Shown: positions 4,155 to 39,048 of the stretch, in pieces
Layout: every line of letters begins with the position of its first letter
How positions within the stretch are numbered: the stretch's first letter is position 1
Source of the DNA: an uncultured Clostridia bacterium
GTDB lineage: Bacteria; Bacillota; Clostridia; TANB77; CAG-508
Reading direction: 5' to 3'
NCBI GenBank assembly: GCA_947627555.1
Contig: CANQWL010000001.1
Coordinates: 1-41,032, forward strand
Length of the DNA stretch: 41,032 bases
Notes under the pieces: model-generated
Database searches by the model: none
Seen by the model: only the letters and a program-made list of their open reading frames with translations
What the model was told of the DNA's origin: nothing
Made by a program: the position numbers and the translations under genes

Positions 4155-6855
4155 TTATTTACACTCATACCAATTATTTGCTTCTGATATTTCTGCAATT
4201 AGTGGTACTTTTAAGTCAGCTGCTGTTTCCATAGATGTTTTTAAAATTTCTTTTATTTCATTAATTTCTTTTTGTGGCACTTCAATCATCATCTCATCAT
4301 GAACTTGTAACACAATTTTTGATTCTAGTTTTCGTTTTTTTATTTCTTGATATACTTTTATCATTGCTATTTTCATAATATCTGCTGCTGTGCCTTGTAT
4401 TGGAGTATTCATTGCAGCTCTTGAGCCAAATTGTCTTACCATATAATTATTAGATTTCAATTCTGGAATATATCTTCTTCTGTGAAATAAGGTCTCTACA
4501 TATCCTTTTTCTTTTGCTTCTTCTGTGATATTATTCATAAAGTTTTTTATGCCCTCATATTGTTCTAAATATTCATCAATGTATTTCTTTGCTTGTTTTC
4601 TAGATATTCCTAATTGCTCTCCTAATCCAAAATCACTAATACCATAAACAATTCCAAAATTAACTGCTTTTGCATTACTTCTTTGTTCTTTTGTTACTTG
4701 GTCAATTGGTGTTTTAAATACTTTTGATGCTGCTTGTTTATGGATATCTTGACCTTCTTTAAATGCTTCTATCATATGTTTGTCTTCTGAAATTGCTGCT
4801 AATACTCTTAATTCTATTTGTGAATAATCAGCATCTATATAAACTTTTCCTTCCTCTGGCTTAAATGCCTTTCTTACTCTTTTTCCTAATTCAAATCTTG
4901 TAGGTATATTTTGTAGATTTGGCTCTGTTGAACTAATTCTTCCTGTCGCTGTTATTGTTTGATGAAAGAAGGAATGAATTCTTTTTGTTTTTGGATTTAT
5001 ATATGGTTTTAAACCTTCTACATAAGTGGAATTTAATTTGGCTAATTGTCTATATTCTAAAATTTGTTCTATTATTGGGTCTTCTTTTCTTAATTTTTCT
5101 AAAACATCTACATCTGTTGAATATCCATTTTTTGTTTTCTTTATTACTGGTAATTTCATTTTTTCAAATAAAATTTCTCCTAGTTGTTTTGTAGAATTAA
5201 TATTAAATTCTTCTCCTGCCATTTCATAAATTATTTTAGTTATAGTTTCTATCTTTTCTGTTAATTCTTTTCCAAATTCATTTAGTTCTACTTCATCTAA
5301 ATACATTCCATTCCACTGCATATCTGATAAAATTTCAATTGTTGGTATATCAATATTATAAAATAGGTCTAAACTATTTACTTTTTCTAATTCTTTTAAT
5401 GTAATTTTTCTTATTTCAGAAATTGCATAACTATATAATGCATATTTCTCTTTTTCTTGCTTTCTGTCCGTCTCTTCTGATATTGCATCAAATAAATTAA
5501 TTTGCTGTGATTCTTCTTCCTTAATATATTCTTCTATATTTATTTCTAAATATTGTTCAATTAAATTTTCTATTTTTAATTTATTATTTGTAGGATTTAA
5601 AATATAAGCAGCTATTGCTATATCATAATTTATTCCTTTTAACTGAATTCCTTCCTGTTTTAATAATATATATACTTTTGTTAAGTCAATACCTATTTTT
5701 TTAATACTTTCGTCTTCTAGTATTTCTTTTAGTTCTATAATATTATTATTTTTTAAGTCCAAATAATAAGCTTCTTTTTGTTCCTCATTATATATACTTA
5801 TTCCTATTATCTTTTCTTTAATAATGTTTTCTTCTTTATCTTGTTTAATTGTTGCAATTGAAAAAATCATTTGTTTTTGCTCTTTAATTAATTGTATGAT
5901 TTCTTCCTTACTTTTATCTGCATTTTTAAAAGTTTCTTTTATATCTTTTTCCACAGTTTCTGCATTATCTGTTAATGAAAATCTTTCAATATATCTTTTA
6001 AAATTTAACTCTTTAAAAATTTCTAATACTTTTTGCTTGTCCCATTCTTCTACTTTGAAATTTTCTAATGTGTCTGTTATTGGCACTTCTAAATTAATTG
6101 TTCCTAAAGTTTTTGACATAAATGCTAAATCTTTATTTTCTACAATTTTTTCTCTTTGTTTTCCTTTTAATCCATCTTCTTCTTTTTCAATTGCTTGATA
6201 AAGATTTTCTATTGAGCCAAATTTTTGAATAAGTGATAAAGCTGTTTTTTCTCCTACTCCTGGCACACCTGGGATGTTATCAGAGGTATCTCCTTGTAAT
6301 CCTTTTACATCTATTAATTGTTTTGGTTCTAGTCCATATTTTTCTATAATCTTTTCCCTATTAAATTCATCTGTTTCTGTTTTTCCTGATTTTGTATGAG
6401 GAATTCTAATTGTTACTTTATCTGTTGCAAGTTGAAATGTATCTCTATCTCCTGAAAGAATTGTAACTTCTAATCCTTGTTTTTCTCCATATCTAGATAA
6501 GGTACCGAAGCACATCATCTGCTTCGTACCCCTCCATTTCTACAATATCAATATTCATTGCTGATAATATTTCTTTTATTATTGGCATTTGTTCTGCTAA
6601 TTCATCTGGCATTCCTTTTCTATTTGCTTTATATCCTTCATACATTTTGTGCCTTGCAGTTGGCGCTTTTAAGTCAAATGCTACTACAAGATATTGAGGT
6701 TCTATATCTTCTAATATTTTAAACAAAATTGCTAAAAATCCATAAATAGCATTTGTATATTTTCCATCTTTTGTTGTTAACATTCTATTTCCCATAATTC
6801 CATAGAATGCTCTATTCATAATACTATTACCATCAACTAATACTAATTTATCCAA
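4155..6855 (-). pseudogene. polA: DNA polymerase I, reading frame broken by one extra base (or an assembly error)
   Basis: ORF 6493-6855 encodes the start of the 5' nuclease (..EGYEADDV). ORF 4155-6518 continues with GTLSRYGE..SGDRD and the polymerase motifs DADYSQIELR, RSNAKAVNFGIVYG and QVHDE. The two frames are offset by 1 and the span of 2701 nt equals 3n+1. Removing one G near 6507 restores ..EADDVLGTLS... Confidence 0.85.
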
Positions 6856-26929: not shown

Positions 26930-28249
26930 TTATTTCATATTATAAGTTCCTACATCTTTATTCCAAGAATTAATCAAGTACTGTTTTTCTGTCTTCGGAA
27001 TCAAAGCCATTCTAAATGCAGACATTGGTCTATTATATCTATACATAGTTTCTTGTCCATCAGATACTGCACTCTGCCATCCATGATTATTTACTAATAT
27101 TTGATAAACAATAGAATAATAGGATGTATCTTTTAATTTCATTTTTATTCCTGCAATTCCAAAAGAATAAGTTCCTTCATATTGTTTTGGAATTGGATTT
27201 TTACCATTAGCATCTGTTTTATCTTTTGCATTAATTCCGCTTCCACCAAACATAAAGCAATTCTTATTTTGAATATTTACCATTGTTCCAGATGCCATTG
27301 ATGCATAAGTCGTTCTACTTGGATTATATCCATATAAATATTTAGTATGATATGTATCACAAGTTGCCATACTTCCTTCTCCCCAATAAGAATAAACAAA
27401 AGCTTGTGCTTGTATAAAATCTTTATCTATATTTCCATCAACATGAAATGCTAATGCTTCTGTTTTTAAAATTGGATTTTGTTTTACGGCAGTTTTTCCT
27501 GCTACATCATAATTTCCATATCCGAATGTCCAACCTATTTCTGAATTATGAGATCCATACACAATATTAATATTTGTTGCTTTTGTAATATTAATTTCTA
27601 TTTTGGTTTTATTTTGAGCTAAATCCATTATTTCAAAAGTATAAGACACATTATTTGTAAATTCTTTTGTTAAAACTAATTTACTTTCGGAAATATTCCA
27701 TCCTTCCATTTTTCTAATTGCTTCATTTGAAGTAATAGTAGCAGTTACTTTTCCTTGTGCACTTTCCTTTTCCAAAAATGTTAAATTAGGAGCAATATTA
27801 TCAATTTGTACATCAGTATCAAAAATTGTTTCTTCATTGATATTATCTGATTTATCTTTTATTGTCCCTTCTTTTACAACAATTTTCAACTTTCCATTAC
27901 CCGTTAGTTTGCTTAATTTTATTTGATATATAATTGATTCACTATTTTTTTCTATTTCTTTTATCTCATAAATTTCTGGATTAACTTCTTTTTCTTGAAT
28001 TAGTATTTTTATTTTTTCTTTTCCAAAATTATTTTCTATTATATTTTTTTCTGTTACTTTTATTTTTGCAGTTATGGTATGTGTCTGATTAGCATATTTT
28101 TCGTAACCTGTATTTGTATTTTCTAAACTTATCAATTCTATTTTAGGTGGATTTCTGTCAATATCAATATTAGCAATATTGTAAGTAGCATCAAATATAT
28201 ATTTTGCATATATATTTATGTTTATACATATTATGGCTAAAAATATCAT
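26930..28249 (-). CDS. large secreted protein with Ig-like repeats and a ChW-like C-terminal region
   Basis: 439 aa with a hydrophobic N-terminus and beta-rich repeats. The C-terminus has GW segments (HNSEIGWTFGYG.., NNHGWQSAVSDGQ) that resemble clostridial ChW repeats. The frame stays open upstream to 28291 (IEKIRKNKKIYVFI) without a canonical start. Confidence 0.6.
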   Translation of the reverse strand: MIFLAIICININIYAKYIFDATYNIANIDIDRNPPKIELISLENTNTGYEKYANQTHTITAKIKVTEKNIIENNFGKEKIKILIQEKEVNPEIYEIKEIEKNSESIIYQIKLSKLTGNGKLKIVVKEGTIKDKSDNINEETIFDTDVQIDNIAPNLTFLEKESAQGKVTATITSNEAIRKMEGWNISESKLVLTKEFTNNVSYTFEIMDLAQNKTKIEINITKATNINIVYGSHNSEIGWTFGYGNYDVAGKTAVKQNPILKTEALAFHVDGNIDKDFIQAQAFVYSYWGEGSMATCDTYHTKYLYGYNPSRTTYASMASGTMVNIQNKNCFMFGGSGINAKDKTDANGKNPIPKQYEGTYSFGIAGIKMKLKDTSYYSIVYQILVNNHGWQSAVSDGQETMYRYNRPMSAFRMALIPKTEKQYLINSWNKDVGTYNMK

Positions 28250-28305
28250 GATAAAAACATATATTTTCTTATTTTTCCTTATTTTTTCTATCTAAATCCC
28301 TCCTT

Positions 28306-28905
28306 TCATATTTCTCTTCCAATTGCATTAATATGAAAACGATAATCTTTTAACGTTGTTCCATCTTTTGTATCTTGAATATCTTGTCCTATATCTGTTT
28401 CGTAATTCCAAATCCATTGAATTATAATTTTCTTACGCTCATTTTTATTAACATTTCCTTGCAATTCTTCTGCTAATTCTTCTATTCTTTGATATTTTTG
28501 ATTTTTTCCTTTAATTGAAAAAGTTAAATTTTGAGGTTTTATATTTTGACTAATAAATTCTATTTGATAATTGATATCTTTATTTGCTTGTAAAATTAGT
28601 TCAAATTCACCTTCTGTTCCTGGTGCAATTTTTTCATTTATTAACTTTTTTTGATCTATTGTTTCTAATAATGAAATATTTGTTGAAATTTCATTTTTAT
28701 TTGAAAAGTCAAAATAATATTTATAAATTTGGTTTTCATTATCATTTGTATTTATCTGATTTTGTTTACTTTGTGAAAATAATTTGAAAAAAATAAAGTC
28801 TTCTGCAAAATCTTTTTTCTGAATTTTATATAATATAAGAAATAATATAAGAAGAATAAAAAAGATTATTAAAATCAACATCTTTATTTTTGTTTTCTTT
28901 TTCAT
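28306..28905 (-). CDS. TasA/camelysin-like secreted beta-sandwich protein, paralogue 2
   Basis: 199 aa with a signal-anchor. It shares KIAPGT(E/S)G(E/K)F(E/D).I, INYQ(I/V).F, NL.FS and IQW.W.YET motifs with ORF 29535-30125. GGAGG RBS. Confidence 0.45.
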   Translation of the reverse strand: MKKKTKIKMLILIIFFILLILFLILYKIQKKDFAEDFIFFKLFSQSKQNQINTNDNENQIYKYYFDFSNKNEISTNISLLETIDQKKLINEKIAPGTEGEFELILQANKDINYQIEFISQNIKPQNLTFSIKGKNQKYQRIEELAEELQGNVNKNERKKIIIQWIWNYETDIGQDIQDTKDGTTLKDYRFHINAIGREI

Positions 28906-28915
28906 TGTACCTCCT

Positions 28916-29422
28916 TTACCCTTTTGCCTGTTCAGAATGTACTTTAATTTCTATTTTTTGCATAATATCTTCTATTGAGGTTGATTTTTCTTTATCATAT
29001 TTTATTTGTATTTTGTATTCATCTTGTTGCATTTCTTGCTTTTTTAATGTAAACTCTTCTGTTTGGTTATTTTCTATTGAAATTTCTTTATTGTTTTTTA
29101 ATAGTTTAATTGAAATTGCATCATCTTCTTTGTTTAATATTTGTACATAATATTTCATATCAACTTGTGTAATTTCTCCTACTTCATTGTAATTTTTTAC
29201 ATAGAAAGTATAATTTCCCTCTTTTTGCTTTGATGTTATATTAATTTCTGGATTATTTTCTACAACTAAAATTGGTTTTGCAACTGCTCCATTTGATTTT
29301 ATTTGCGTACTACTAATAGCTTTTCCTATACTACATCCTGAAAAAAATAATATCATTACCATTATTGTTATACATATTAAAGTTATCTCTCTTTTTTTAT
29401 TTTGAATTAATTTTATTTTCAT
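28916..29422 (-). CDS. lipoprotein (beta-rich)
   Basis: The start at 29422 gives MKIKLIQNKKREITLICITIMVMILFFSGC with an FSGC lipobox. The longer ORF-track start would run through an upstream hairpin. Confidence 0.6.
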   Translation of the reverse strand: MKIKLIQNKKREITLICITIMVMILFFSGCSIGKAISSTQIKSNGAVAKPILVVENNPEINITSKQKEGNYTFYVKNYNEVGEITQVDMKYYVQILNKEDDAISIKLLKNNKEISIENNQTEEFTLKKQEMQQDEYKIQIKYDKEKSTSIEDIMQKIEIKVHSEQAKG

Positions 29423-29447
29423 AGCATCCTTCTTTCCTTTTAAAATA

Positions 29448-29472
29448 GGAAAGAGTTTCACAATCTCTTTCC
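29448..29472 (-). terminator. intra-operon hairpin (possible attenuator) after the first TasA-like gene
   Basis: GGAAAGAG (29448-29455) pairs with CTCTTTCC (29465-29472). On the minus strand it is followed by UAUUUUAAAA. Confidence 0.35.
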
Positions 29473-29534
29473 CTTGTATTTTATTTTCTATCATTCAATA
29501 AAATTAATAGATTATGAAATGAATCTAAAATTGT

Positions 29535-30125
29535 TTAATTAGGTGCAACTTGTGTTCCTGATACAATAATGTCGAATTCATAATTTGAAATATTTTTTGC
29601 ATCTTGTGTATCAATCTTATCATTTGCTGTGATTTCTTCTGGTGTACTTCCTGTTTGATATTTCCAATTCCATTGAATTGGAAATACTTTTCTTTTTTCT
29701 TGTTCGTTACTATTAATTGTTCCTGATAGCACTTGTGTTAATTGAGTAATAGAATTATATTCTGTGCCATTATAACTAAATTTTAAATTAGTCGGTTTAT
29801 TTTTTTCATTTCTGAAATCAACTTGATAGTTTATTCCAACATCTGAACCTGTAGCATCTATAATAATATCAAATTTCCCACTTGTTCCTGGGGCTATTTT
29901 ATTATTTACAAGTGTCTGGTTATTACTAGTAGATTGTAAGTTTATTGTTTGTACTTGTTCTTCTTGTCCATTAACATTAAATTGCCATGTAGCAACTTGT
30001 GCAATTCCTTCTCCTTTCACTCTTGCAACATATTTTGAATATACTTGTCCTCCTATAAAGGATGATAAAATTCCTAATAAAATTGCTAATGCAATAATAA
30101 TTTTCTTTTTTTTGGTCAAAAGCAT
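29535..30125 (-). CDS. TasA/camelysin-like secreted beta-sandwich protein, paralogue 1
   Basis: 196 aa. The signal peptide ends ..FIGGQVYSKY, reminiscent of the SipW-class GG..Y.F cleavage region. It has KIAPGTSGKFDIIIDATGSDVGINYQV and IQWNWKYQ motifs. A TTG at 30119 is better spaced from GGAGGA than the ATG at 30125. Confidence 0.5.
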   Translation of the reverse strand: MLLTKKKKIIIALAILLGILSSFIGGQVYSKYVARVKGEGIAQVATWQFNVNGQEEQVQTINLQSTSNNQTLVNNKIAPGTSGKFDIIIDATGSDVGINYQVDFRNEKNKPTNLKFSYNGTEYNSITQLTQVLSGTINSNEQEKRKVFPIQWNWKYQTGSTPEEITANDKIDTQDAKNISNYEFDIIVSGTQVAPN

Positions 30126-31660: not shown

Positions 31661-32272
31661 TTAATTCTCATCCTTTTTTGTGTATTCTATTATAAGATAT
31701 CTAGCACTTGAAAAACCTTCAGCACACCATAATCTTAGTCCAGTAGTTCCTTCACTTATACAAAAAATAGATGACATTGCATTATTAGAATTACATATAG
31801 CATCAGCTCTTAAAAAATGCTCTACCCAACTATAGTCTCCTACAACATTTACAGAACCAGAAGGAGGAGCACCAGAAGGAATTTCGATAATTTTTCTATA
31901 AATTGTTTTTCCATTTATCCAAGTTCCAATTTCAACTTCATCAGTAGTATAAGTATTTACATTTTTTAGTCTATTATATTCCTCTTTACTTATTGTTACT
32001 GTTTTTCTATTATTAATTGTATCTTCAATTATGTTTTCGTATTGTTGTAAATTAGCATTTTCTTCTACTTGTGCTTGGTCTGTTTTATTTTTTGCTAATT
32101 CTGCTTTTTTTATTATTCCATTTTTTCCTGTCAAAAGAGCAATTGAAACTCCTGCTAATATTAATAATATTATAATTGTTATAATTAATGCTATCATTGT
32201 GATACCTTTGTTTGAAAATTTATTATTTTTCTCATTTTTTTCTTTAAAAGTTAAATTCTTTTGTTTCTTCAT
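31661..32272 (-). CDS. pilin-like protein A (prepilin-type N-terminus, variable C-domain)
   Basis: 23-aa basic leader ending KG, then ITMIALIITIIILLILAGVSI and the LTGKNGIIKKAELAKNKTDQAQVEEN helix. The C-domain contains GTWINGKTIYRKII. Confidence 0.6.
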   Translation of the reverse strand: MKKQKNLTFKEKNEKNNKFSNKGITMIALIITIIILLILAGVSIALLTGKNGIIKKAELAKNKTDQAQVEENANLQQYENIIEDTINNRKTVTISKEEYNRLKNVNTYTTDEVEIGTWINGKTIYRKIIEIPSGAPPSGSVNVVGDYSWVEHFLRADAICNSNNAMSSIFCISEGTTGLRLWCAEGFSSARYLIIEYTKKDEN

Positions 32273-32405
32273 TTGTTTCCTCCATTTTTTATTAGATTAC
32301 TTTTTTCTATCTTTTAATCTAATAAAATTTTATATAATTTCATTTACATATTCAAGGAATACAGCTGTTTTTGTTAATAACTTTTTTACATAATGTTTAA
32401 ATAAA
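32057..32405 (-). repeat. cassette repeat copy A (promoter + leader + N-terminal coding block)
   Basis: Near-identical by eye to 38474-38830 (5 mismatches in the 133 bp upstream of the ATG) and closely similar to 36732-37090. Confidence 0.85.
32327..32355 (-). promoter_or_regulatory. cassette promoter A, TTGAAT-N17-TAAAAT
   Basis: -35 at 32355-32350 and -10 at 32332-32327. An ACAGCTGT palindrome lies at 32361-32368 and a 5' stem-loop at 32292-32322. Confidence 0.5.
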
Positions 32406-32432
32406 TTTTTATTTAAATACTTTTAGATAAAC

Positions 32433-32475
32433 AAAGGTATGGAATTATTTCTTATAAAAATTATTCCATACCTTT
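32433..32475 (-). terminator. hairpin terminator after the pilin-like D gene
   Basis: AAAGGTATGGAAT (32433-32445) pairs with ATTCCATACCTTT (32463-32475), starting 5 nt after the stop at 32480. The U-tail on the minus strand is weak. Confidence 0.5.
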
Positions 32476-32479
32476 ATTT

Positions 32480-33394
32480 TTATTTATAATTTAATCTTAT
32501 ATCACAATATTGCGTATTAGAGCTTGTACTTCCTGAATAATCTATATATCCACCAATAATACTTACTATATGTTCACCAGAATATTCACTTATATCAATA
32601 TCTAATTTAATCCAATCATTTGGCAAATCATTATAATCTACCCTATATATCTCTGTGTTATCAATCCATATATATACTGAACCATGATTTACTCCTTTTT
32701 TAGCATATAATTGTAAATTATTATAATCTTTTAAATCAATAGTATTATACCATCTTATCGAATTTTGTATAGTCCAATTATTAGTAGGATCAGGTGAATG
32801 TCCAGTCATTGATAAACCTGGAGTTCCATTAAGATTATTTTCTGTAATTGATACTGAGCCATTTGTCTGACCTTGCTTTAAAAATTCTTTTGTAAATATA
32901 AATTCTGTTTTTGTTCTTATTTTAACCTCTGATTTCTTTGAGTTACCAAAACTATCAATTGCAACTACTATTATAGTATAATCAGTATCTGCATCTAAAT
33001 CTGTTACTATGCACTGTTCTTCAGCTCCTGCTCCTTTTAATTTACCATTAACAATATAAACATAACAAATAATAGAAGCATTATCTGAATATGCTTTTGC
33101 ATTTACTGTAAATCCATGTGATCCAATATCAGTAATTTTGGGTGCAAAATCTTTTATTTCACCTGTGCTTTCATTTATAGAATTATTAATATATCCATTG
33201 ATTATATTTTCATAATCACCTAAAATTTCATTTTCTTCTACTTGTGCCTGGTCTGTTTTATATTTTGCTAATTCTGCTTTTTTTACTATTCCATTTTCTC
33301 CTGTTAAAAGACCGATTGAAACTCCTGCTAATATTAACAATATTATTATTGTTATAATTAATGCTATCATTGTGATACCTTTTTCTTTTTTCAT
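32480..33394 (-). CDS. pilin-like protein D with FN3 and jelly-roll/CBM-like domains
   Basis: Short leader MKKEKG, then the same ITMIALIITIIILLILAGVSI..LTGENGIVKKAELAK block. An FN3-like segment follows (GFTVNAKAYSD..YVYIVNG..TDLDADTDYTIIVVAIDSFGNSK), then a C-terminal beta domain. Confidence 0.6.
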   Translation of the reverse strand: MKKEKGITMIALIITIIILLILAGVSIGLLTGENGIVKKAELAKYKTDQAQVEENEILGDYENIINGYINNSINESTGEIKDFAPKITDIGSHGFTVNAKAYSDNASIICYVYIVNGKLKGAGAEEQCIVTDLDADTDYTIIVVAIDSFGNSKKSEVKIRTKTEFIFTKEFLKQGQTNGSVSITENNLNGTPGLSMTGHSPDPTNNWTIQNSIRWYNTIDLKDYNNLQLYAKKGVNHGSVYIWIDNTEIYRVDYNDLPNDWIKLDIDISEYSGEHIVSIIGGYIDYSGSTSSNTQYCDIRLNYK

Positions 33395-33432
33395 TTGTTT
33401 TCTCCTTTTATGTTATCTTGTTCATATTTAAA

Positions 33433-33461
33433 ATTATAACATTACACTTTTTATTTGTAAA
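33433..33461 (-). promoter_or_regulatory. promoter of pilin-like D, TTTACA-N17-TATAAT (unrelated to the cassette promoter)
   Basis: -35 at 33461-33456, 17-nt spacer, -10 at 33438-33433. Confidence 0.5.
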
Positions 33462-33618
33462 TACTTTTTGCCTATGTAATTTTATATTTATTCATTTAAA
33501 TTTCTTTGTCTTTACTCTTTTCCATTTTTTAAATTCTTTTTGAATTTTTTTAGCATCTTTAAACGTTTTAGCAATGCATATTCTGAGGACATTTACATTA
33601 CCATGAATCCTTGAAATG

Positions 33619-33659
33619 GTAAAATGAAAGTAGACACAAAAAGTCTGCTTTCATTTTAC
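33619..33659. other. 17-bp stem hairpin downstream of the sortase gene
   Basis: GTAAAATGAAAGTAGAC (33619-33635) pairs with GTCTGCTTTCATTTTAC (33643-33659) with one mismatch. There is no clear U-tail on either strand. Confidence 0.5.
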
Positions 33660-33689
33660 TACTTCACATTAACGGATAGTTTTTTATTT

Positions 33690-34376
33690 TTATATTTCTC
33701 TTCCTTTTATTATAAATCTTGTTACTCCTCCAGGATTACATGTAATAATAGTAGCTTCTTTTTTTCCTTCTGTATTTTGTTTTAAACAATCTAACTCTTT
33801 AGGCATACAAGTATATATATTATAGATTTTGTAATTTACTTTATTTAATGTTTTTCTATCAACTATATAAAACGTATCACCTATTTTTAATTCTAGTGCT
33901 CTTTTTAACATACCTTTCCAATTATGACCACATATACAAAAATTTCCTATTTGATTTATATCAGGGCCATACAATTTAACTACAGATAATTTTAATGCAT
34001 TATCGTCTGATACACTTAATATATCTTTACTTATATTTACTTTTTCTATTACAAGCCTTCCTAGTACTTCATATCCTCCCATTTTAGCTGGAATTTCATT
34101 ATCTCTTTTTATATCTGTTTGCTCTTCTATAGTACTTTGCTGTATAGTATTTATTTTATCTTCCGATTCATTTATTTGCTCTTGTTTATTTTCTTCTATA
34201 CTTTCTCCTTTGTCTTCTATTGTTTCTTGCGTACTCATTCTACTTGCCTGACTATCATTTGTCTTTCTACTGCCTAATATTTTTAGTAGATTATTACTAT
34301 ATATTATATAAATAATACAAAAAATACTTATTCCTAAAAAAATACAATAAATTATTTTATTTTTTTCTTTCTTCAT
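33690..34376 (-). CDS. sortase (cysteine transpeptidase), class not assignable by eye
   Basis: N-terminal TM, His motif FCICGHN, active-site ATIITC (TLxTC type) and a downstream conserved Arg (TRFIIKG). Confidence 0.8.
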   Translation of the reverse strand: MKKEKNKIIYCIFLGISIFCIIYIIYSNNLLKILGSRKTNDSQASRMSTQETIEDKGESIEENKQEQINESEDKINTIQQSTIEEQTDIKRDNEIPAKMGGYEVLGRLVIEKVNISKDILSVSDDNALKLSVVKLYGPDINQIGNFCICGHNWKGMLKRALELKIGDTFYIVDRKTLNKVNYKIYNIYTCMPKELDCLKQNTEGKKEATIITCNPGGVTRFIIKGREI

Positions 34377-34447
34377 TTTAAATAAGCTCCTTCATAATTT
34401 GCCTTTAGCTTTATTAAAGGGATATTATGAAAAATTACTAATATTTT

Positions 34448-35851
34448 TTATTTATTTATATATTTTTTTAAAATTATAGCTGCTATAACAATTATTGATA
34501 AAATCGTTGCTACAATTGCTGCTATAGTTGTAGTTATAGCTGAACCTGTAGCTGGTAATTCATCTATTGGTAATTCTGGTTCAGGTTCTTCAACAGGTGC
34601 CTCTACTACTTTAATTCCTACTTGTTGTATATTATATAATGCTGAATCTGTATCTCCTGAATTATCTCCAGCAAGAAAATTACTTACTTTTATATATTCT
34701 TCGTCTGTTGAGTTTCTTCCTTCTGTAACTCCTAGTGCTTTAAATTGTAAATTTATTTCTGATATTTGGCTTCCACTAGCTGATACAGTAAGTAAATCAT
34801 CTTCTTGTGATGCTGTAACTTGTGCTTGATTATCACCTAAATCAACATATCCAAAAATTTCTTTATCATAAAATAAATCAAATTGTACATAATCTGTAGG
34901 TTTATCTTGAGATACTGTTACTGTAAATGTATCTCCTACTTTTGCTGTATCATCTGTTAAATCTGTTCTTATTTGAACTGTTGAACGATCTCTTGCAGTT
35001 ACTGCAACAGAGACTTCTTTTGAGTAATATAGATGTGCATTTGTAGCTTCTTCTTCACTATTTCCTGATTTATAGTTTTCTATTTTAAACCAACTTGGAG
35101 AATTTTCTTGTGTTTCTGCTGTTGCCTTAAATAATAATGTTACATCAGTAATATCTGTTCCTGATGCTTTTACTGTAACTTTTCCTTCTGTAGAAGAATC
35201 TGCTTGGTAATTAGAATCTGCAGGTCCAACAAATTCAAAATGAGCATTATCATATGAGATTGTTGCTTCAACATAATTTGTTGGGTCTGTTTGTGCTAAA
35301 GATATATTAACTTTTCTTTCTACTGGTACACTTTCCTTATTTGCTTGTATACTTACTTTTCCTTCATATTTTTCCCTTGCTTGAACTCTAACTTGCATTA
35401 CAGTATATTGACCTACTTGTGCATTTTCCGAACTTTCTCCTGATTTAAATTCTGATACTCCAAAGTATACTCCATTTCCATCTGTTGCTTTTGTTGCTTT
35501 AAATTTTAAACTTACGCTTGATATATCTTCTACTCCATGAGGAGCTGCCATTGTTACTGTAATAGTTCCTGCATTATCGTCTGTAGCTTGAAAATCGCCT
35601 TCTATTCCTTCATAACTAAATATATTTTTGTCATATTTTAGTTTGAATCCAACATATTTTGTACTTTTTGCTTCTGTTCCTCCTGGTTGATATTGAGATA
35701 CTGTTACTTTAAATGTATCTCCTACTTCTACTATTGTAGAATCTGCACTTATTTTAACTATAGTATCGCCTGGTTGTGCATTACTTATATTTGGTAATAT
35801 TAGTATTGCTACAATTACTATAGCTAATAATACTGCTATTGTTTTTTTCAT
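34448..35851 (-). CDS. LPATG-anchored surface protein with three cohesin-like modules
   Basis: Signal peptide ..NISNA-QPG. Three ~135-aa modules follow, each with VGDTF.VTVSQ...(F.L.YD)..F.. and ..L.FKA. The C-terminus has a PEPE linker, LPATG, a hydrophobic stretch and KKYINK. Confidence 0.75.
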   Translation of the reverse strand: MKKTIAVLLAIVIVAILILPNISNAQPGDTIVKISADSTIVEVGDTFKVTVSQYQPGGTEAKSTKYVGFKLKYDKNIFSYEGIEGDFQATDDNAGTITVTMAAPHGVEDISSVSLKFKATKATDGNGVYFGVSEFKSGESSENAQVGQYTVMQVRVQAREKYEGKVSIQANKESVPVERKVNISLAQTDPTNYVEATISYDNAHFEFVGPADSNYQADSSTEGKVTVKASGTDITDVTLLFKATAETQENSPSWFKIENYKSGNSEEEATNAHLYYSKEVSVAVTARDRSTVQIRTDLTDDTAKVGDTFTVTVSQDKPTDYVQFDLFYDKEIFGYVDLGDNQAQVTASQEDDLLTVSASGSQISEINLQFKALGVTEGRNSTDEEYIKVSNFLAGDNSGDTDSALYNIQQVGIKVVEAPVEEPEPELPIDELPATGSAITTTIAAIVATILSIIVIAAIILKKYINK

Positions 35852-36063
35852 TTTTTTACCTCCTAAAATATTTTTTAATTAACTTTATATTGTAAATTAA
35901 GTAATTTTAATTTTTCCTTTTACAATTTTGTTAATTTTTTATACATACTTATTATTTTATTTTTTTAGTTCTTTTATCCACTTTTCTTTTAAAAAAAAAT
36001 TGTCAATTTTTGAAAATTAAAATAAATTTATATTCTTTTAGAATTTATGATTTAAGCATAAAA

Positions 36064-36110
36064 AGAACCCATGCTATTAAACTTTTTTGTCTAATAATTT
36101 GGGTTCTTCT
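36064..36110 (-). terminator. hairpin after the pilin-like B region
   Basis: AAGAACCCA (36064-36072) pairs with TGGGTTCTT (36102-36110) across a large 29-nt loop. On the minus strand it is followed by UUUUAUGC. Confidence 0.4.
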
Positions 36111-36318
36111 TACTGTATAATAAAATTTTCACTTGTTAGTTTCTTTAATGATACATCTGATTTCAGACAAATTACTGGTCGATAACCATGTTAATCATTA
36201 TTTGCATTATATCCAACATATCCTAAATTTTCTATTTTTTCTATTAATTTTTGATTCTTTATATGTTTCTCTCTTTTATGATTCTACATAATTATACTTT
36301 TAAATTTTTAAAAGTAAA

Positions 36319-36948
36319 TTATTTTATTCCATATATCAAAATATATGTTGAAGCCCAAGTTGAATCCTTAGTTTGATTTTTACTTACTGATAATGTTGTA
36401 TTTGTACTTAAGTAAACAGTATTAATTCTAATTAAACTTTGATGTTCAAGTACAATTGAATTATAAAAATTTAGTTGTGCTGGTATAATTGTATTATCCA
36501 CCCAGTCATTATTTTCCTTTGTATTTAAATGAGAATTTAGTAATAAGTATCTATAATTTTCTATACTTTTATTAAGTTCTATCTTATCTGCAGTACTTGA
36601 AATTTTACCTTCTCCAATTAATTCATATTCACCTCTATTTTTTAATTTTTCATATTCATCTTTTGTAATTGTAACATTTTCTCTGTTTTCAGTAATTTCA
36701 TTTATTTTATCTTCATAATTAGCTAATACCACATTTTCTTCTACTTGTGCTTCATCTGTTTTATTTTTTGCTAATTCTGCTTTTTTTATTATTCCATTTT
36801 CTCCTGTTAGAAAAGCAATTGAGACTCCTGCTAATATTAACAATATTATAATTGTTATAATTAATGCTATAAGTGTTATTCCTTTGTTTGAAAATCTATT
36901 ATTTTTCTTATTTTTTTCTCTAAAATTTAAATTCTTTTGTTTCTTCAT
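36319..36948 (-). CDS. pilin-like protein B (prepilin-type N-terminus, variable C-domain)
   Basis: The ATG at 36948 follows the same AAATGGAGGAAACAA RBS as copies A and C; the ORF-track start at 36981 is a GTG inside the leader. Leader MKKQKNLNFREKNKKNNRFSNKG, then ITLIALIITIIILLILAGVSI. Confidence 0.6.
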   Translation of the reverse strand: MKKQKNLNFREKNKKNNRFSNKGITLIALIITIIILLILAGVSIAFLTGENGIIKKAELAKNKTDEAQVEENVVLANYEDKINEITENRENVTITKDEYEKLKNRGEYELIGEGKISSTADKIELNKSIENYRYLLLNSHLNTKENNDWVDNTIIPAQLNFYNSIVLEHQSLIRINTVYLSTNTTLSVSKNQTKDSTWASTYILIYGIK

Positions 36949-37090
36949 TTGTTTCCTCCATTTTTTATTAGATTGCTTCACACTATCTTTTAATCTAATA
37001 AAATTTTATATAATTTCACTTACATATTCAAGGAATACAGCTGTTTTTATTAATAACTTTTTTACATAATTCTTAAATAAAATTTTATTT
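36732..37090 (-). repeat. cassette repeat copy B
   Basis: Same promoter/leader/N-terminal block as copies A and C, with more substitutions. The stem of the 5' hairpin (36968-36998) is conserved while its loop differs. Confidence 0.8.
37003..37031 (-). promoter_or_regulatory. cassette promoter B, TTGAAT-N17-TAAAAT
   Basis: -35 at 37031-37026 and -10 at 37008-37003. ACAGCTGT at 37037-37044. Confidence 0.5.
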
Positions 37091-37251
37091 CGATGATTTT
37101 TTTAATCAAATTATAATCTTAATTTCCACATATTTTTTCTATATTACTACTATTTTAATTTTTTTTACCATCTTTAAATGTTTTAGCAACACAGATAGTT
37201 TTAAAAAAAGAATTTTTTTAAAGTGTTATATTTTTTGTTAAACATACAAAA

Positions 37252-37282
37252 AAACTATAGCTCGTTTAATTCGCTATAGTTT
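37252..37282 (-). terminator. rho-independent terminator after the 139-aa gene
   Basis: AAACTATAGC (37252-37261) pairs with GCTATAGTTT (37273-37282). On the minus strand it is followed by UUUUUUUG. Confidence 0.7.
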
Positions 37283-37415
37283 CTCTTTTTAGCTAGATTG
37301 TCTAAATTTTAACTAGTATATTTTAGAGCCAAATTTTCTTAGTGTCTATTTTATAACATTTTTTACTTCTTAATGTTAGTCAAAATATCGATTTTTATTA
37401 TTTATACATTTTTAT

Positions 37416-37835
37416 CTATTGCAATATAATATAAGAAAAATTATAATCACCTCTTATTGTAATTGTAACAGTATTGTCATTAGTAATAAAAGCCTTTTCA
37501 AAAGAAGCGACATTATTAAAAACTCCTCCTCTTAAATCACTAGATAATTCTATAGAATTTGTTGCCGTTATAGTGTATATAGAAGATACAATAATTATTT
37601 GTCCTTTTTCAACATTAAGTGTTGTACCTGATGCAACCTCATTTCCAGTTGCTACGATGGATATATTTTTATTATAAAGTTCATTTAATGCTTGCTCTAC
37701 AGTTTTACCATCTTTATATATAACTTGACTTGCTAAATATTGATATGATGTAAAAGCTGTTCCACAGATACAGATAATTCCAATTATAAATGCAATTATT
37801 ATTATCTTTTTATTTTTTTTTATGAATTTTTTCAT
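37416..37835 (-). CDS. small N-terminally anchored surface protein
   Basis: 139 aa with a basic N-terminus plus one TM, then ..VIYKDGKTVEQALNELY.., a segment type I associate with surface or fibre proteins of Firmicutes, and a beta-rich remainder. Confidence 0.5.
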   Translation of the reverse strand: MKKFIKKNKKIIIIAFIIGIICICGTAFTSYQYLASQVIYKDGKTVEQALNELYNKNISIVATGNEVASGTTLNVEKGQIIIVSSIYTITATNSIELSSDLRGGVFNNVASFEKAFITNDNTVTITIRGDYNFSYIILQ

Positions 37836-38037
37836 ATTTTTATTATCCTTTCAATCTTTAATATTTCAAATATAAAATTTAATAAAATTTTATATTTTTA
37901 TTCCTACAAATTATTTTTTTATTGCTATATAAACAATCTAATGTTTATTTAACGTTTTCTACATTTTAATTTGAATTTTCTGAAATAAAGTAAACATCTT
38001 TAGCAAAAACTTTTTTATTTTTATTTGTAATAAACTA

Positions 38038-38688
38038 TTATATATTAAATCCTATTATTTTATATGGAATTATATGGCTATCTGTTCCTGGAAACTCTGT
38101 CAAAGTGCTAGTTCCAGAATTTAGCATACAAGAGCTATTTCCGAATGTTAATTGATTTCTATCTATATTTTTTACTTCTAAAAAACATGGATACCATAAT
38201 CCTATTTCCAAAGTACAAATCTGGTCTACTGGTATTAATCCTGTAGAAGAAAAATTAGAATTTGTAATATTATGACCTGTTGCAAATTTAAAAATTATTT
38301 CATAATAATTATAATTATTAATATCATCTATTAAAGTTACAGTTCTAGCAGAAAAAGTACTTAAGTCATCATTTGTCCATAGAATTCTACTATTATTTCC
38401 ATTGTTTCTATTTATATTATTTCCACTTCCAACTATTTCGTTAATTTTATTTTCATAATCACCTAAAATTTCATTTTCTTCTACTTGTGCTTGGTCTGTT
38501 TTATTTTTTGCTAATTCTGCTTTTTTTACTATTCCATCTTCTCCTGTCAAAAGACCGATTGAAACTCCTGCTAATATTAATAATATTATAATTGTTATAA
38601 TTAATGCTATCATTGTTATTCCTTTGTTTGAAAATTTATTATTTTTCTCATTTTTTTCTTTAAAAGTTAAATTCTTTTGTTTCTTCAT
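38038..38688 (-). CDS. pilin-like protein C (prepilin-type N-terminus, variable C-domain)
   Basis: Leader identical to copy A (MKKQKNLTFKEKNEKNNKFSNKG) and the same hydrophobic block. The helix continuation EENEILGDYEN is identical to copy D, and the C-domain is unrelated to the others. Confidence 0.6.
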   Translation of the reverse strand: MKKQKNLTFKEKNEKNNKFSNKGITMIALIITIIILLILAGVSIGLLTGEDGIVKKAELAKNKTDQAQVEENEILGDYENKINEIVGSGNNINRNNGNNSRILWTNDDLSTFSARTVTLIDDINNYNYYEIIFKFATGHNITNSNFSSTGLIPVDQICTLEIGLWYPCFLEVKNIDRNQLTFGNSSCMLNSGTSTLTEFPGTDSHIIPYKIIGFNI

Positions 38689-38830
38689 TTGTTTCCTCCA
38701 TTTTTTATTAGATTGCTTTTTTCTATCTTTTAATCTAATAAAATTTTATATGATTTCTTTTACTTGTTCAAGGAATACAGCTGTTTTTGTTAATAACTTT
38801 TTTACATAATGTTTAAATAAAATTTTATAA
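38474..38830 (-). repeat. cassette repeat copy C
   Basis: See copy A. 5' hairpin at 38708-38738. Confidence 0.85.
38743..38771 (-). promoter_or_regulatory. cassette promoter C, TTGAAC-N17-TAAAAT
   Basis: -35 at 38771-38766 and -10 at 38748-38743. ACAGCTGT at 38777-38784. Confidence 0.5.
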
Positions 38831-38859
38831 AAGTATTAGATTTTTGTTAGACATATAAA

Positions 38860-38896
38860 AAATAAACAACTCTCAAAAACTGAAAGTTGTTTATTT
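38860..38896 (-). terminator. rho-independent terminator
   Basis: AAATAAACAAC (38860-38870) pairs with GTTGTTTATTT (38886-38896). On the minus strand it is followed by UUUUAUAU. Confidence 0.7.
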
Positions 38897-38899
38897 CAT

Positions 38900-38946
38900 T
38901 GGCTGAGTTGGCTAGATTCGAACTAGCGCATGCCAGAGTCAAAGTC
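38900..38946 (-). pseudogene. 3' fragment of tRNA-Gln(UUG): anticodon loop to CCA, 5' half absent
   Basis: The minus-strand reading AGACTTTGACTCTGGCATGCGCTAGTTCGAATCTAGCCAACTCAGCCA matches a Firmicute tRNA-Gln. Components: CTTTGAC loop, CATGC variable region, GCTAG-TTCGAAT-CTAGC T-arm, acceptor 3' strand, G, CCA. The complementary acceptor 5' strand (TGAGTTG) and the D-arm are not upstream. Confidence 0.6.
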
Positions 38947-39048
38947 TTACCTTTCATTGTATAAGCAGTCTAATTATACAATGTACGTAAGTGAGATTTT
39001 AGAACACAAACTCACAATAATAAAAGAGTATTTGGTGGCATATTTGAA

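Follow-up and report, generated by a model that had tools for sequence, protein, structure and literature searches.

What are four pilin-like proteins that begin almost identically and end in unrelated domains doing in a stretch of DNA that encodes no pilus machinery? The question is raised by 41,032 nucleotides from an uncultured Clostridia bacterium (assembly GCA_947627555.1, contig CANQWL010000001.1, positions 1 to 41,032), referred to as the window. A preliminary description of this DNA had pointed to four open reading frames (ORFs), here termed g1 (31661-32272, 203 aa), g2 (32480-33394, 304 aa), g3 (36319-36948, 209 aa) and g4 (38038-38688, 216 aa). All four exist at these positions on the minus strand, as seen in the ORF list. 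In our analysis, they are, with a probability of roughly 60%, orphan type IV pilin paralogues with swapped heads that are displayed by the pilus of this lineage. This reading is backed directly by the homology of their N-terminus to an operon-encoded pilin in relatives, by their modular architecture, by the expansion of the family and by the homogenisation of the stalk within genomes; from these data we infer cleavage, assembly into pili and an adhesin function of the paralogues.

The protein alignment showed that g1 to g4 share the invariant block KG|IT(M/L)IALIITIIILLILAGVSI..LTG..GI.KKAELAK.KTD.AQVEEN, in which the bar marks the predicted cleavage site, and that their stalks carry the window-specific signature ...GI(I/V)KKAELAKNKTDQAQVEEN. 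Each protein starts with a basic leader ending in KG, followed by approximately 21 hydrophobic residues (ITMIALIITIIILLILAGVSI), which is the layout of a class III signal. In g1, the leader comprises residues 1-23 (32204-32272) with predicted cleavage after Gly23, and the alpha-1 stalk extends over residues 24-87 (32012-32203) with a kink at TGKNG. The leaders of g3 and g4 are also 23 residues long, that of g4 being identical to the g1 leader at the DNA level, and their stalks are found at 36688-36879 and 38428-38619, respectively; an upstream in-frame GTG at 36981 is a possible alternative start of g3. The short leader of g2, MKKEKG (33377-33394), precedes a stalk at 33182-33376. The proposal of the preliminary description that a single mature N-terminus carries leaders of 23 and 6 residues was hence borne out, as were the existence of the shared block and its interpretation as a prepilin or class III signal.

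The Pfam model N_methyl (PF07963) matched all four window proteins at 15.0-17.6 bits (16.7 for g2 and 17.6 for g3), below its cut-off of 21.2 bits, and it matched 30 of 30 sampled family N-termini at E<=1, with a best E-value of 5e-5. Similarities to NCBIfam models were faint and limited to GspG, ComGC and PilA. The leaders of family members range from 5 to at least 25 residues (10th-90th percentile 6-25, the upper tail being inflated by longest-ORF calls), and Gly is nonetheless present at position -1 in 129 of 140 sequences, with Ala in another 10; Ile was found at +1 in 137 of the 140. The retention of Gly-1 at variable leader length corresponds to the pattern that would be expected of a cleaved signal.

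There are two family-wide departures from the usual motif, namely, Ile instead of Phe or Met at position +1 and Ala instead of Glu at position +5. The Ala noted at +5 in all four window copies, in place of the Glu5 of type IV pilins, is a property of the entire family: it was present in 205 of 214 members (Ser in 6 and Thr in 3) and in 137 of a further 140 (Val in 2 and Ser in 1), with neither Glu nor Asp occurring at this site. As judged by its sequence, the shared block combines a type IV prepilin signal that is specific to the lineage with an alpha-1 helix (KG|ITxIAL...), and Ala takes the place of the near-universal Glu5. This residue "almost invariably" interrupts the hydrophobic stretch of bacterial pilins; it is dispensable for prepilin processing, and Glu5 mutants fail to homopolymerise, yet they co-assemble with wild-type subunits (PMC4471445). 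The subunit that caps the tip of the pilus is devoid of Glu5 (PMC10191384). The literature searched contained no description of a Glu5-less class, and a motif-based search of the literature did not retrieve any article in which the N-terminal sequence appears.

A scan of one genome per species returned at least 461 loci with family members, 80 of which, from 61 assemblies, were included in the context analysis. Clustering of the genes neighbouring these 80 loci revealed a type IV pilus operon, within which a family member was located in 10 cases (L029, L047, L048, L058, L060, L061, L062, L066, L067 and L071). The gene order begins with rsmB, a 540-aa pilM-like gene that is assigned by position only and two small membrane proteins; these are followed by one or two short pilins (~140-170 aa) with the family N-terminus KG|ITLIALVITIIVLLILAGVSIAMLTGENGIL, a pilD homologue, an Asp5 pilin (KG|FTGID...), a Ser/Thr5 pilin (KG|ITLIS...), pilB, pilT and pilC. 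In locus L062, the assignments are based on matches of the pilD homologue to A24_N_bact (2e-31), of pilB to T2SSE (2.6e-103) and TIGR02538 (5e-122), of pilT to TIGR01420 (1.8e-94) and of pilC to T2SSF (1.3e-26) and GspF (8e-50), and the operon pilin of this locus exceeds the N_methyl cut-off with 22.2 bits. From its gene position, the short operon pilin is the presumptive major pilin, and we infer from these relatives that the operon is also present in the genome from which the window is derived.

The operon pilin and long orphan paralogues coexist in the same MAGs (metagenome-assembled genomes), namely, CAJFII (L060 and L051), CANTGH and CANQTU. In CAJFII, both types of protein carry the genome-specific stalk signature ...GVTI.LTLGENGIFKTAE.AG.NYTQAQ, and stalk identity was in general higher within than between genomes (0.97 versus 0.84 for alpha-1N and 0.64 versus 0.41 for alpha-1C). 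Since operon pilins have the same N-terminus and stalks are genome specific, the window genes are best regarded as orphan paralogues of the pilin of their lineage. The preliminary description had allowed for a pilus locus elsewhere that assembles these proteins, which would reduce them to a known system; the operon of the relatives, with the same N-terminus, comes close to being this locus, and its machinery may assemble the window proteins. The operon PilB (L062 12345-13979, with homologues in L029, L060, L066, L067 and L071) has the Walker A motif AAPTGEGKT instead of GPTGSGKT, and a regular-expression search for GPTGSGKT over 1.2 Mb of related loci, which returned no match, is thus a false negative. 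The N-terminus of this PilB contains an MshEN-type cyclic-di-GMP-binding motif (NF053729, 7e-8, below the cut-off), which suggests that the pilus may be controlled by cyclic-di-GMP.

The family is very large. Searches at E<=0.001 retrieved 813 proteins with g2 as query and 2,222 with g1, and the 66-residue stalk alone matched 20,279 clusters at 50% identity (1,316 of them at E<=1e-10) among 1.84 billion representatives. Nearly all members are unnamed or called hypothetical. Their C-termini are highly diverse, as illustrated by the precomputed Pfam domains Glug, LRR_5, Big_2, Flg_new, F5/8 type C, FGE-sulfatase and fn3. The 80 loci belong almost exclusively to MAGs of uncultured Clostridia, Clostridiales or Clostridium, and many isolate names indicate a gut origin (Hadza, BRZ, rabbit, chicken). 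The MAG CAKPMJ01 harbours at least 10 distinct members within ~120 kb sampled. Close relatives of the window genes are located on contigs of 2-3 kb that break at repeats; assemblies seem to break at the repeated 5' modules, and copy numbers in MAGs are probably underestimates. The closest relatives also occur on short contigs with three family genes in tandem (L088, an ENA contig of 2,091 bp). One 706-aa protein (P0346) has the pilin-like N-terminus twice, at residues ~8 and ~392, most likely as an artefact of gene calling or of a frameshift that fused two neighbouring family genes.

Downstream of the stalk, no similarity was detected between the heads of the four window proteins. In g1, a linker with a short helix (TVTISKEEYNRLKN) leads to a beta-sandwich head of ~90 aa (IGTWINGKTIYRK ... 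IIEYTKKDEN); g2 has a disordered linker, an FN3-like domain and a jelly-roll that resembles a carbohydrate-binding module (CBM); g3 has a TITKDEYEKLKN linker and its own head; and g4 also has a head of its own. In the hhalign profile comparison, similarity to the g1 family ended at residue ~117 in g3 and at residue ~91 in g4, and no similarity was detected past the linker, which rejects the idea that the heads of g1, g3 and g4 are diverged versions of one domain and agrees with the complete divergence reported earlier. Conservation in the g1 subfamily is found in the first (IGTWI(D/N)GK.IYRK) and last (..EYTK.TD) strands, which flank a hypervariable sequence.

Structure predictions are consistent with this layout. 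The AlphaFold model of g2, based on an alignment of 17 sequences, has a pLDDT of 82.8 and shows helices at 2-31 and 36-71, interrupted at TGENG, and then, behind a disordered linker, an FN3-like sandwich (86-160) followed by a jelly-roll (170-302). The FN3 and jelly-roll-like domains attributed to this protein thus reappear in the model, the Pfam fn3 match being below threshold (E=0.0013), and the best Foldseek matches of the model were carbohydrate-binding modules (2c26 with 3e-8, CBM51 and CBM4-2). The model of g1 (35 sequences, pLDDT 78) has helices at 21-48, 53-87 and 96-103, the short one being located in the conserved TVTISKEEY..LKN linker, and strands at 113-199. Its Foldseek matches were weak (best E=0.02) and included adenovirus and R-pyocin fibre heads, a resemblance that we take as a hint only. 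An alpha-1 helix is hence predicted in both proteins, and both models consist of a long kinked helix, a linker and one or more beta-sandwich heads. PDB sequence searches with g1 and with the PilD profile returned nothing useful. Family searches, the g2 model and the Foldseek matches all support the suggestion of the preliminary description that a constant stem presents interchangeable heads. A further protein, P0012, has a CBM-like C-terminal domain of the g2 type behind a different handle, composed of a transmembrane segment and ...V..ALNELY, that is also found in a 139-aa protein of the window; heads therefore appear to be shuffled between two anchoring modules.

We propose the following explanation for these observations. 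Each gene would give rise to a prepilin with a basic leader ending in Gly, a near-invariant alpha-1N (ITxIALxITIIxLLILAGV), an amphipathic alpha-1C, a flexible linker and a variable head. The prepilin would be inserted into the membrane with its N-terminus inside, and the PilD homologue of the lineage would cut off the leader after Gly-1. A PilB/PilC/PilT machine encoded elsewhere in the genome would then pull the stalk helix from the membrane and pack it with the short operon pilins, so that the heads, such as the FN3 and CBM-like lectin domains of g2, would serve as interchangeable adhesins or lectins, most plausibly displayed at the pilus tip or at a low density along its length. The need to fit one machinery and one filament core is the simplest explanation for the retention of Gly-1 with variable leaders, for the near-invariant stalk and for its homogenisation within genomes. 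We also put forward, tentatively and as a possibility that we consider doubtful, a broader form of this proposal, namely, an abundant lineage of uncultured gut Clostridia whose bacterial type IV pilus operates with no Glu5 pilins and with a GxGD-less peptidase, uses the invariant alpha-1 as a handle for at least 10 heads per genome and serves as the main surface display in place of LPXTG or surface-layer anchoring. If this were true, helices would have to pack in an archaeal-like manner, through hydrophobic contacts alone, and the chemistry of processing would be altered.

Several observations weigh against display by a pilus. Genes for a prepilin peptidase, PilB/PilT or PilC were not found within the 41-kb window, as judged by the ORF lists and by Pfam and NCBIfam scans; the earlier statement that there is no pilus machinery nearby is consequently correct for this contig, but it does not hold beyond it, where relatives with the same N-terminus have the complete operon described above. 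Furthermore, Glu5 is absent from every pilin of the system, as the family has Ala5 and the minor pilins of the operon have Asp5 and Ser/Thr5, so that canonical Glu5-dependent packing cannot apply. Also, the predicted structures lack the classical pilin fold: neither the g1 nor the g2 model has a beta-sheet packed on alpha-1C, and instead of a four-stranded beta-meander at this position they show a low-confidence linker and independent beta-sandwich domains. According to the models, the long paralogues would therefore have a "stalk plus linker plus head" architecture rather than a classical pilin fold with an added module.

The PilD homologue provides another counterargument. In the 8 operon PilD homologues and their 120 closest database relatives, the A24 N-terminal domain, a Zn/methyltransferase domain with a strong match, is the only one annotated; Peptidase_A24 (PF01478) did not match the PilD homologues even at E<=10, nor did any NCBIfam model. 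Profile comparison with a canonical clostridial PilD (Acetoanaerobium noterae, with the motifs IDYDE and GFGDVML) gave a near full-length alignment with a probability of 99.7% over 225 columns. In this alignment, the first Asp (G-I-D) superposes, and the stretch aligned with GxGD contains no Asp; this motif is missing. The Asp in question, D126, and D176 (F-D-T), which lies across the same basic loop from it, are conserved in 127 of 128 PilD homologues (that of L062, 10564-11415, and 127 others). These two residues possibly constitute a diverged but active dyad. The PilD homologue may, however, not be an active peptidase, and prepilin processing is not assured.

We have weighed pilus display against other explanations. 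One of them, which we consider rather unlikely, is that the pilin signal serves for surface display without a filament: the proteins would be recognised and processed by way of the class III signal, and the type IV machinery would place them at the cell surface, giving no more than a short pseudopilus or an array close to the membrane, in line with the model put forward for the Sulfolobus bindosome, and not subunits of long pili. Regular polymerisation is made less likely by the lack of both Glu5 and a globular pilin domain, and the presence of many functionally diverse heads on one signal recalls the archaeal sugar-binding proteins with class III signals (PMC4471445). However, the operon encodes a PilT-type retraction ATPase and short pilins of classical size with the same stalk, which indicates a real, extendable pilus, and a helix of ~60 residues with small domains would probably barely cross a Gram-positive wall in the absence of a filament.

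Another explanation is based on the DNA that surrounds the shared block. Over the 52 codons of this block, g1 to g4 are 89-95% identical at the DNA level, with merely 3-7 synonymous codon differences. The claim that three copies also share their upstream DNA holds for g1, g3 and g4, which are 87-93% identical over 150 nt upstream and 94-100% identical in the 23-codon leader; g2 has a separate upstream region along with its 6-residue leader. The proteins could thus be ordinary type II signal-anchor proteins with an uncleaved leader, and recombination would have spread the common N-terminus as a duplicated 5' module that comprises promoter, leader and transmembrane helix. The upstream DNA equals the coding block in conservation, which would fit a recent duplication or gene conversion event rather than selection acting on the protein, and the missing GxGD motif of the PilD homologue also fits. 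Such events do contribute to the local similarity, given the conservation of the non-coding part of the module, but they cannot account for conservation across 61 assemblies. The occurrence of the same ~30-residue sequence in these assemblies and in ~20,000 clusters at 50% identity is far more than an anchor needs. Taking into account also that Gly-1 is conserved despite variable leader length, that the same N-terminus is found on a pilin gene beside pilD, pilB, pilT and pilC, and that every member tested matches N_methyl, we regard uncleaved anchors as improbable.

The 5' modules are also central to the idea that each paralogue is an alternative major pilin that forms its own homopolymeric pilus, with repeated modules permitting recombinational head switching; such antigenic or functional variation would loosely resemble known pilin variation systems. 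The module of g1 (32273-32430, minus strand, repeat family D3) contains a sigma-70-like promoter candidate, an AU-rich hairpin in the 5' untranslated region (UTR) and a GGAGG ribosome-binding site. Those of g3 (36949-37105, minus strand), for which a promoter candidate, a UTR hairpin and a ribosome-binding site were likewise recorded, and of g4 (38689-38845, minus strand) are common to the three genes. The hairpins of 12-13 bp, just 5' of GGAGG, are located at 32273-32345, 36949-37021 and 38689-38761 for g1, g3 and g4, respectively, and have z-scores of -1.6 to -3.5 (-8.8 kcal/mol and z = -3.45 for g1); g2 lacks this hairpin. A riboswitch or known RNA in the shared 5' region was rejected, as Rfam returned none at gathering thresholds and a weak AU hairpin is all that is present. 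A 22-bp hairpin (inverted repeat I22, 91% complementary) at 32429-32479 on the minus strand, directly 3' of g2, is likely a terminator between the g2 and g1 transcription units, and the sortase gene discussed below is also followed by a hairpin, which suggests separate transcription units. Each of the four pilin-like genes accordingly appears to be its own transcription unit.

Such an arrangement, with a separate promoter-like region, ribosome-binding site and terminator for every copy, would suit alternative major pilins. Direct repeats of ~300 nt with 72-83% identity could mediate recombination, and the g1-subfamily heads are hypervariable between conserved framework strands. Nevertheless, heads of 120-230 residues on a flexible linker, lacking a pilin fold, are unlikely to pack as sole subunit; all copies are complete and apparently expressible genes rather than silent cassettes, and no invertible elements were found. 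We therefore consider this explanation highly improbable.

Four other origins were dismissed: sortase-dependent (LPXTG) pilins, because the proteins end in ...EYTKKDEN, ...IRLNYK, ...LIYGIK and ...IIGFNI, without LPXTG or a C-terminal transmembrane segment, and because the sortase and cohesin genes are not seen again next to other members of the family, LPATG being confined to the cohesin-like neighbour; Tad/Flp pilins, which have G|xxxxEY, a very short mature pilin and CpaF/TadBC, whereas the motif here is G|ITMIAL and the associated ATPases match PilB and PilT models; archaeal-type pilins or bindosome substrates, which go with a PibD/FlaK-type peptidase lacking the bacterial N-terminal domain and with an archaeal assembly ATPase, because the PilD homologue has the bacterial A24_N_bact domain and the best models for the ATPase are bacterial PilB and GspE, with only 45-64 bits for BasE and FlaI; and a phage or prophage, given a weak PHROG match to the N-terminus and 5 marginal loci in 2.9 million viral contigs.

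In comparison with known systems, the family is an unannotated, greatly expanded Glu5-less variant of the modular type IV pilins and not a new system. In the modular pilins PilB and PilC of Streptococcus sanguinis, a functional module is grafted onto a pilin, probably at the pilus tip, and such proteins occur widely, over 1,200 of them having been identified in a survey via the N_methyl signature (Raynaud et al. 2021, PMC8179133). When the definition of that study is applied, the FN3-like and CBM-like domains of g2 and the Pfam domains of the family represent modules, and the pilin module is reduced to alpha-1. Both groups combine a class III signal and a pilin stalk with an extra adhesin or lectin module and are architecturally diverse. 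In S. sanguinis, however, the module comes after a small but complete pilin fold and the genes belong to the pil locus, whereas here the head is joined to alpha-1 by a linker and takes the place of the globular pilin domain. The genes of the present family are orphans that lie scattered, with one MAG having at least 10; their products lack Glu5, and the N-terminus copies that of the presumptive major pilin of the operon. As most members are below the N_methyl threshold, a signature-based census would miss them.

The absence of Glu5 and the bulky extra domains are shared with tip pilins of the GspK/PilK type and with the trimeric initiators CofB and TcpB, which sit at the tip with no subunit above them. 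Those proteins are encoded by single dedicated genes in Glu5-containing systems, whereas here every pilin, the short operon pilins included, is devoid of Glu5; the similarity of the g1 head to trimeric fibre knobs is restricted to weak fold hints (E ~0.02). Archaeal class III proteins, including those of the Sulfolobus bindosome, also often lack Glu5 and place one signal on functionally diverse extracellular proteins. The machinery here differs from theirs in being of the bacterial type IVa (PilB TIGR02538, PilT TIGR01420, PilC and a PilD homologue whose A24 N-terminal domain is the bacterial one), and the N-terminus matches the bacterial N_methyl model.

Type IV pili of monoderm bacteria are exemplified by Clostridioides difficile and Clostridium perfringens, in which operons contain pilD, pilB, pilC, pilT and pilM/N/O-like genes and extra pilin genes are located elsewhere in the genome. 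Their pilins have the canonical G|FTLxE with Glu5, their PilD has GxGD and the number of paralogues is modest. In contrast, G|ITLIA is the motif here, the PilD homologue has diverged and the family has expanded to a far greater extent. Another pilus system of uncultured low-GC gut Clostridia is the Tad-type cluster of the uncultured order TANB77, which comprises CpaB, TadZ, CpaE, CpaF and TadBC and includes pilin-like genes with their own promoters (Kim et al. 2024, PMC11680825). Its machinery and its pilin-like proteins are different from those described here, and neither the PilB/PilT/PilC operon nor the Ala5 family is mentioned in that article.

If the paralogues are processed and presented by pili, they would make up a very large set of unannotated adhesins in uncultured gut Clostridia (~20,000 clusters, nearly all hypothetical) and a source of host- or glycan-binding modules. 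A pilus in which all pilins lack Glu5 would challenge the textbook role of this residue in docking, all the more so with a divergent peptidase devoid of GxGD, and offer a natural test case for Glu5-independent assembly. Since present model thresholds miss the family, pilin and modular-pilin censuses of gut metagenomes are undercounts. Should the proteins instead be uncleaved anchors, the locus would illustrate a recombining 5' module on ordinary surface proteins.

The window is a chromosomal contig of low GC content (~24%) with housekeeping and sporulation-type genes such as polA, ruvB, xerD and a spoIIM-like gene; the PolA of assembly CATGLK01, one of the nearest relatives, is 89% identical. 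Interleaved with the pilin-like genes are the sortase, cohesin-like anchor protein and small anchored protein listed in the preliminary description, all of which were confirmed. The sortase gene (33690-34376, minus strand) matches Pfam Sortase (PF04203, 2e-11) and, below the cut-off, the NCBIfam class C sortase (2.4e-16). The neighbouring gene at 34448-35851 (minus strand) encodes a protein of 467 aa with a signal peptide and three cohesin-like repeats (Pfam Cohesin PF00963, 4e-7, three stretches; internal repeats D2 and D4). At its C-terminus, an LPATG sorting signal precedes a transmembrane segment and KKYINK, and the protein is probably the substrate of the adjacent sortase. A homologue of the sortase was absent from the 80 related loci. 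The sortase and cohesin genes are not conserved beside pilin-like family members elsewhere, and their presence here is probably incidental. The 139-aa N-anchored protein (37416-37835, minus strand), in which a transmembrane segment precedes the ...VEQALNELY handle, had no family match in Pfam, NCBIfam and PHROG scans.

The upstream boundary of the cluster at 38859-38990 (minus strand) consists of a tRNA-like 3' fragment, with the T-arm GCTAGTTCGAATCTAGC and the acceptor end ...CAGCCA, followed by an 18-bp hairpin identified by the terminator scan. A tRNA beside g4 was called by neither ARAGORN nor Rfam, and the fragment may be what remains of an insertion site bordering the pilin-like cluster. 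Three N-anchored proteins of ~195 aa (28306-28905, 28916-29494 and 29535-30125) adjoin a 439-aa protein in the region 26930-30125 (minus strand), and two of the three have the motif KIAPGT(S/E)G.F(D/E) in common. Pfam, NCBIfam and PHROG gave no match for the proteins of this region, which may form another set of surface-fibre or matrix proteins. Finally, polA (4155-6855, minus strand) is split into the overlapping ORFs 6493-6855 (120 aa) and 4155-6518 (787 aa), reflecting either a frameshift or an assembly error.

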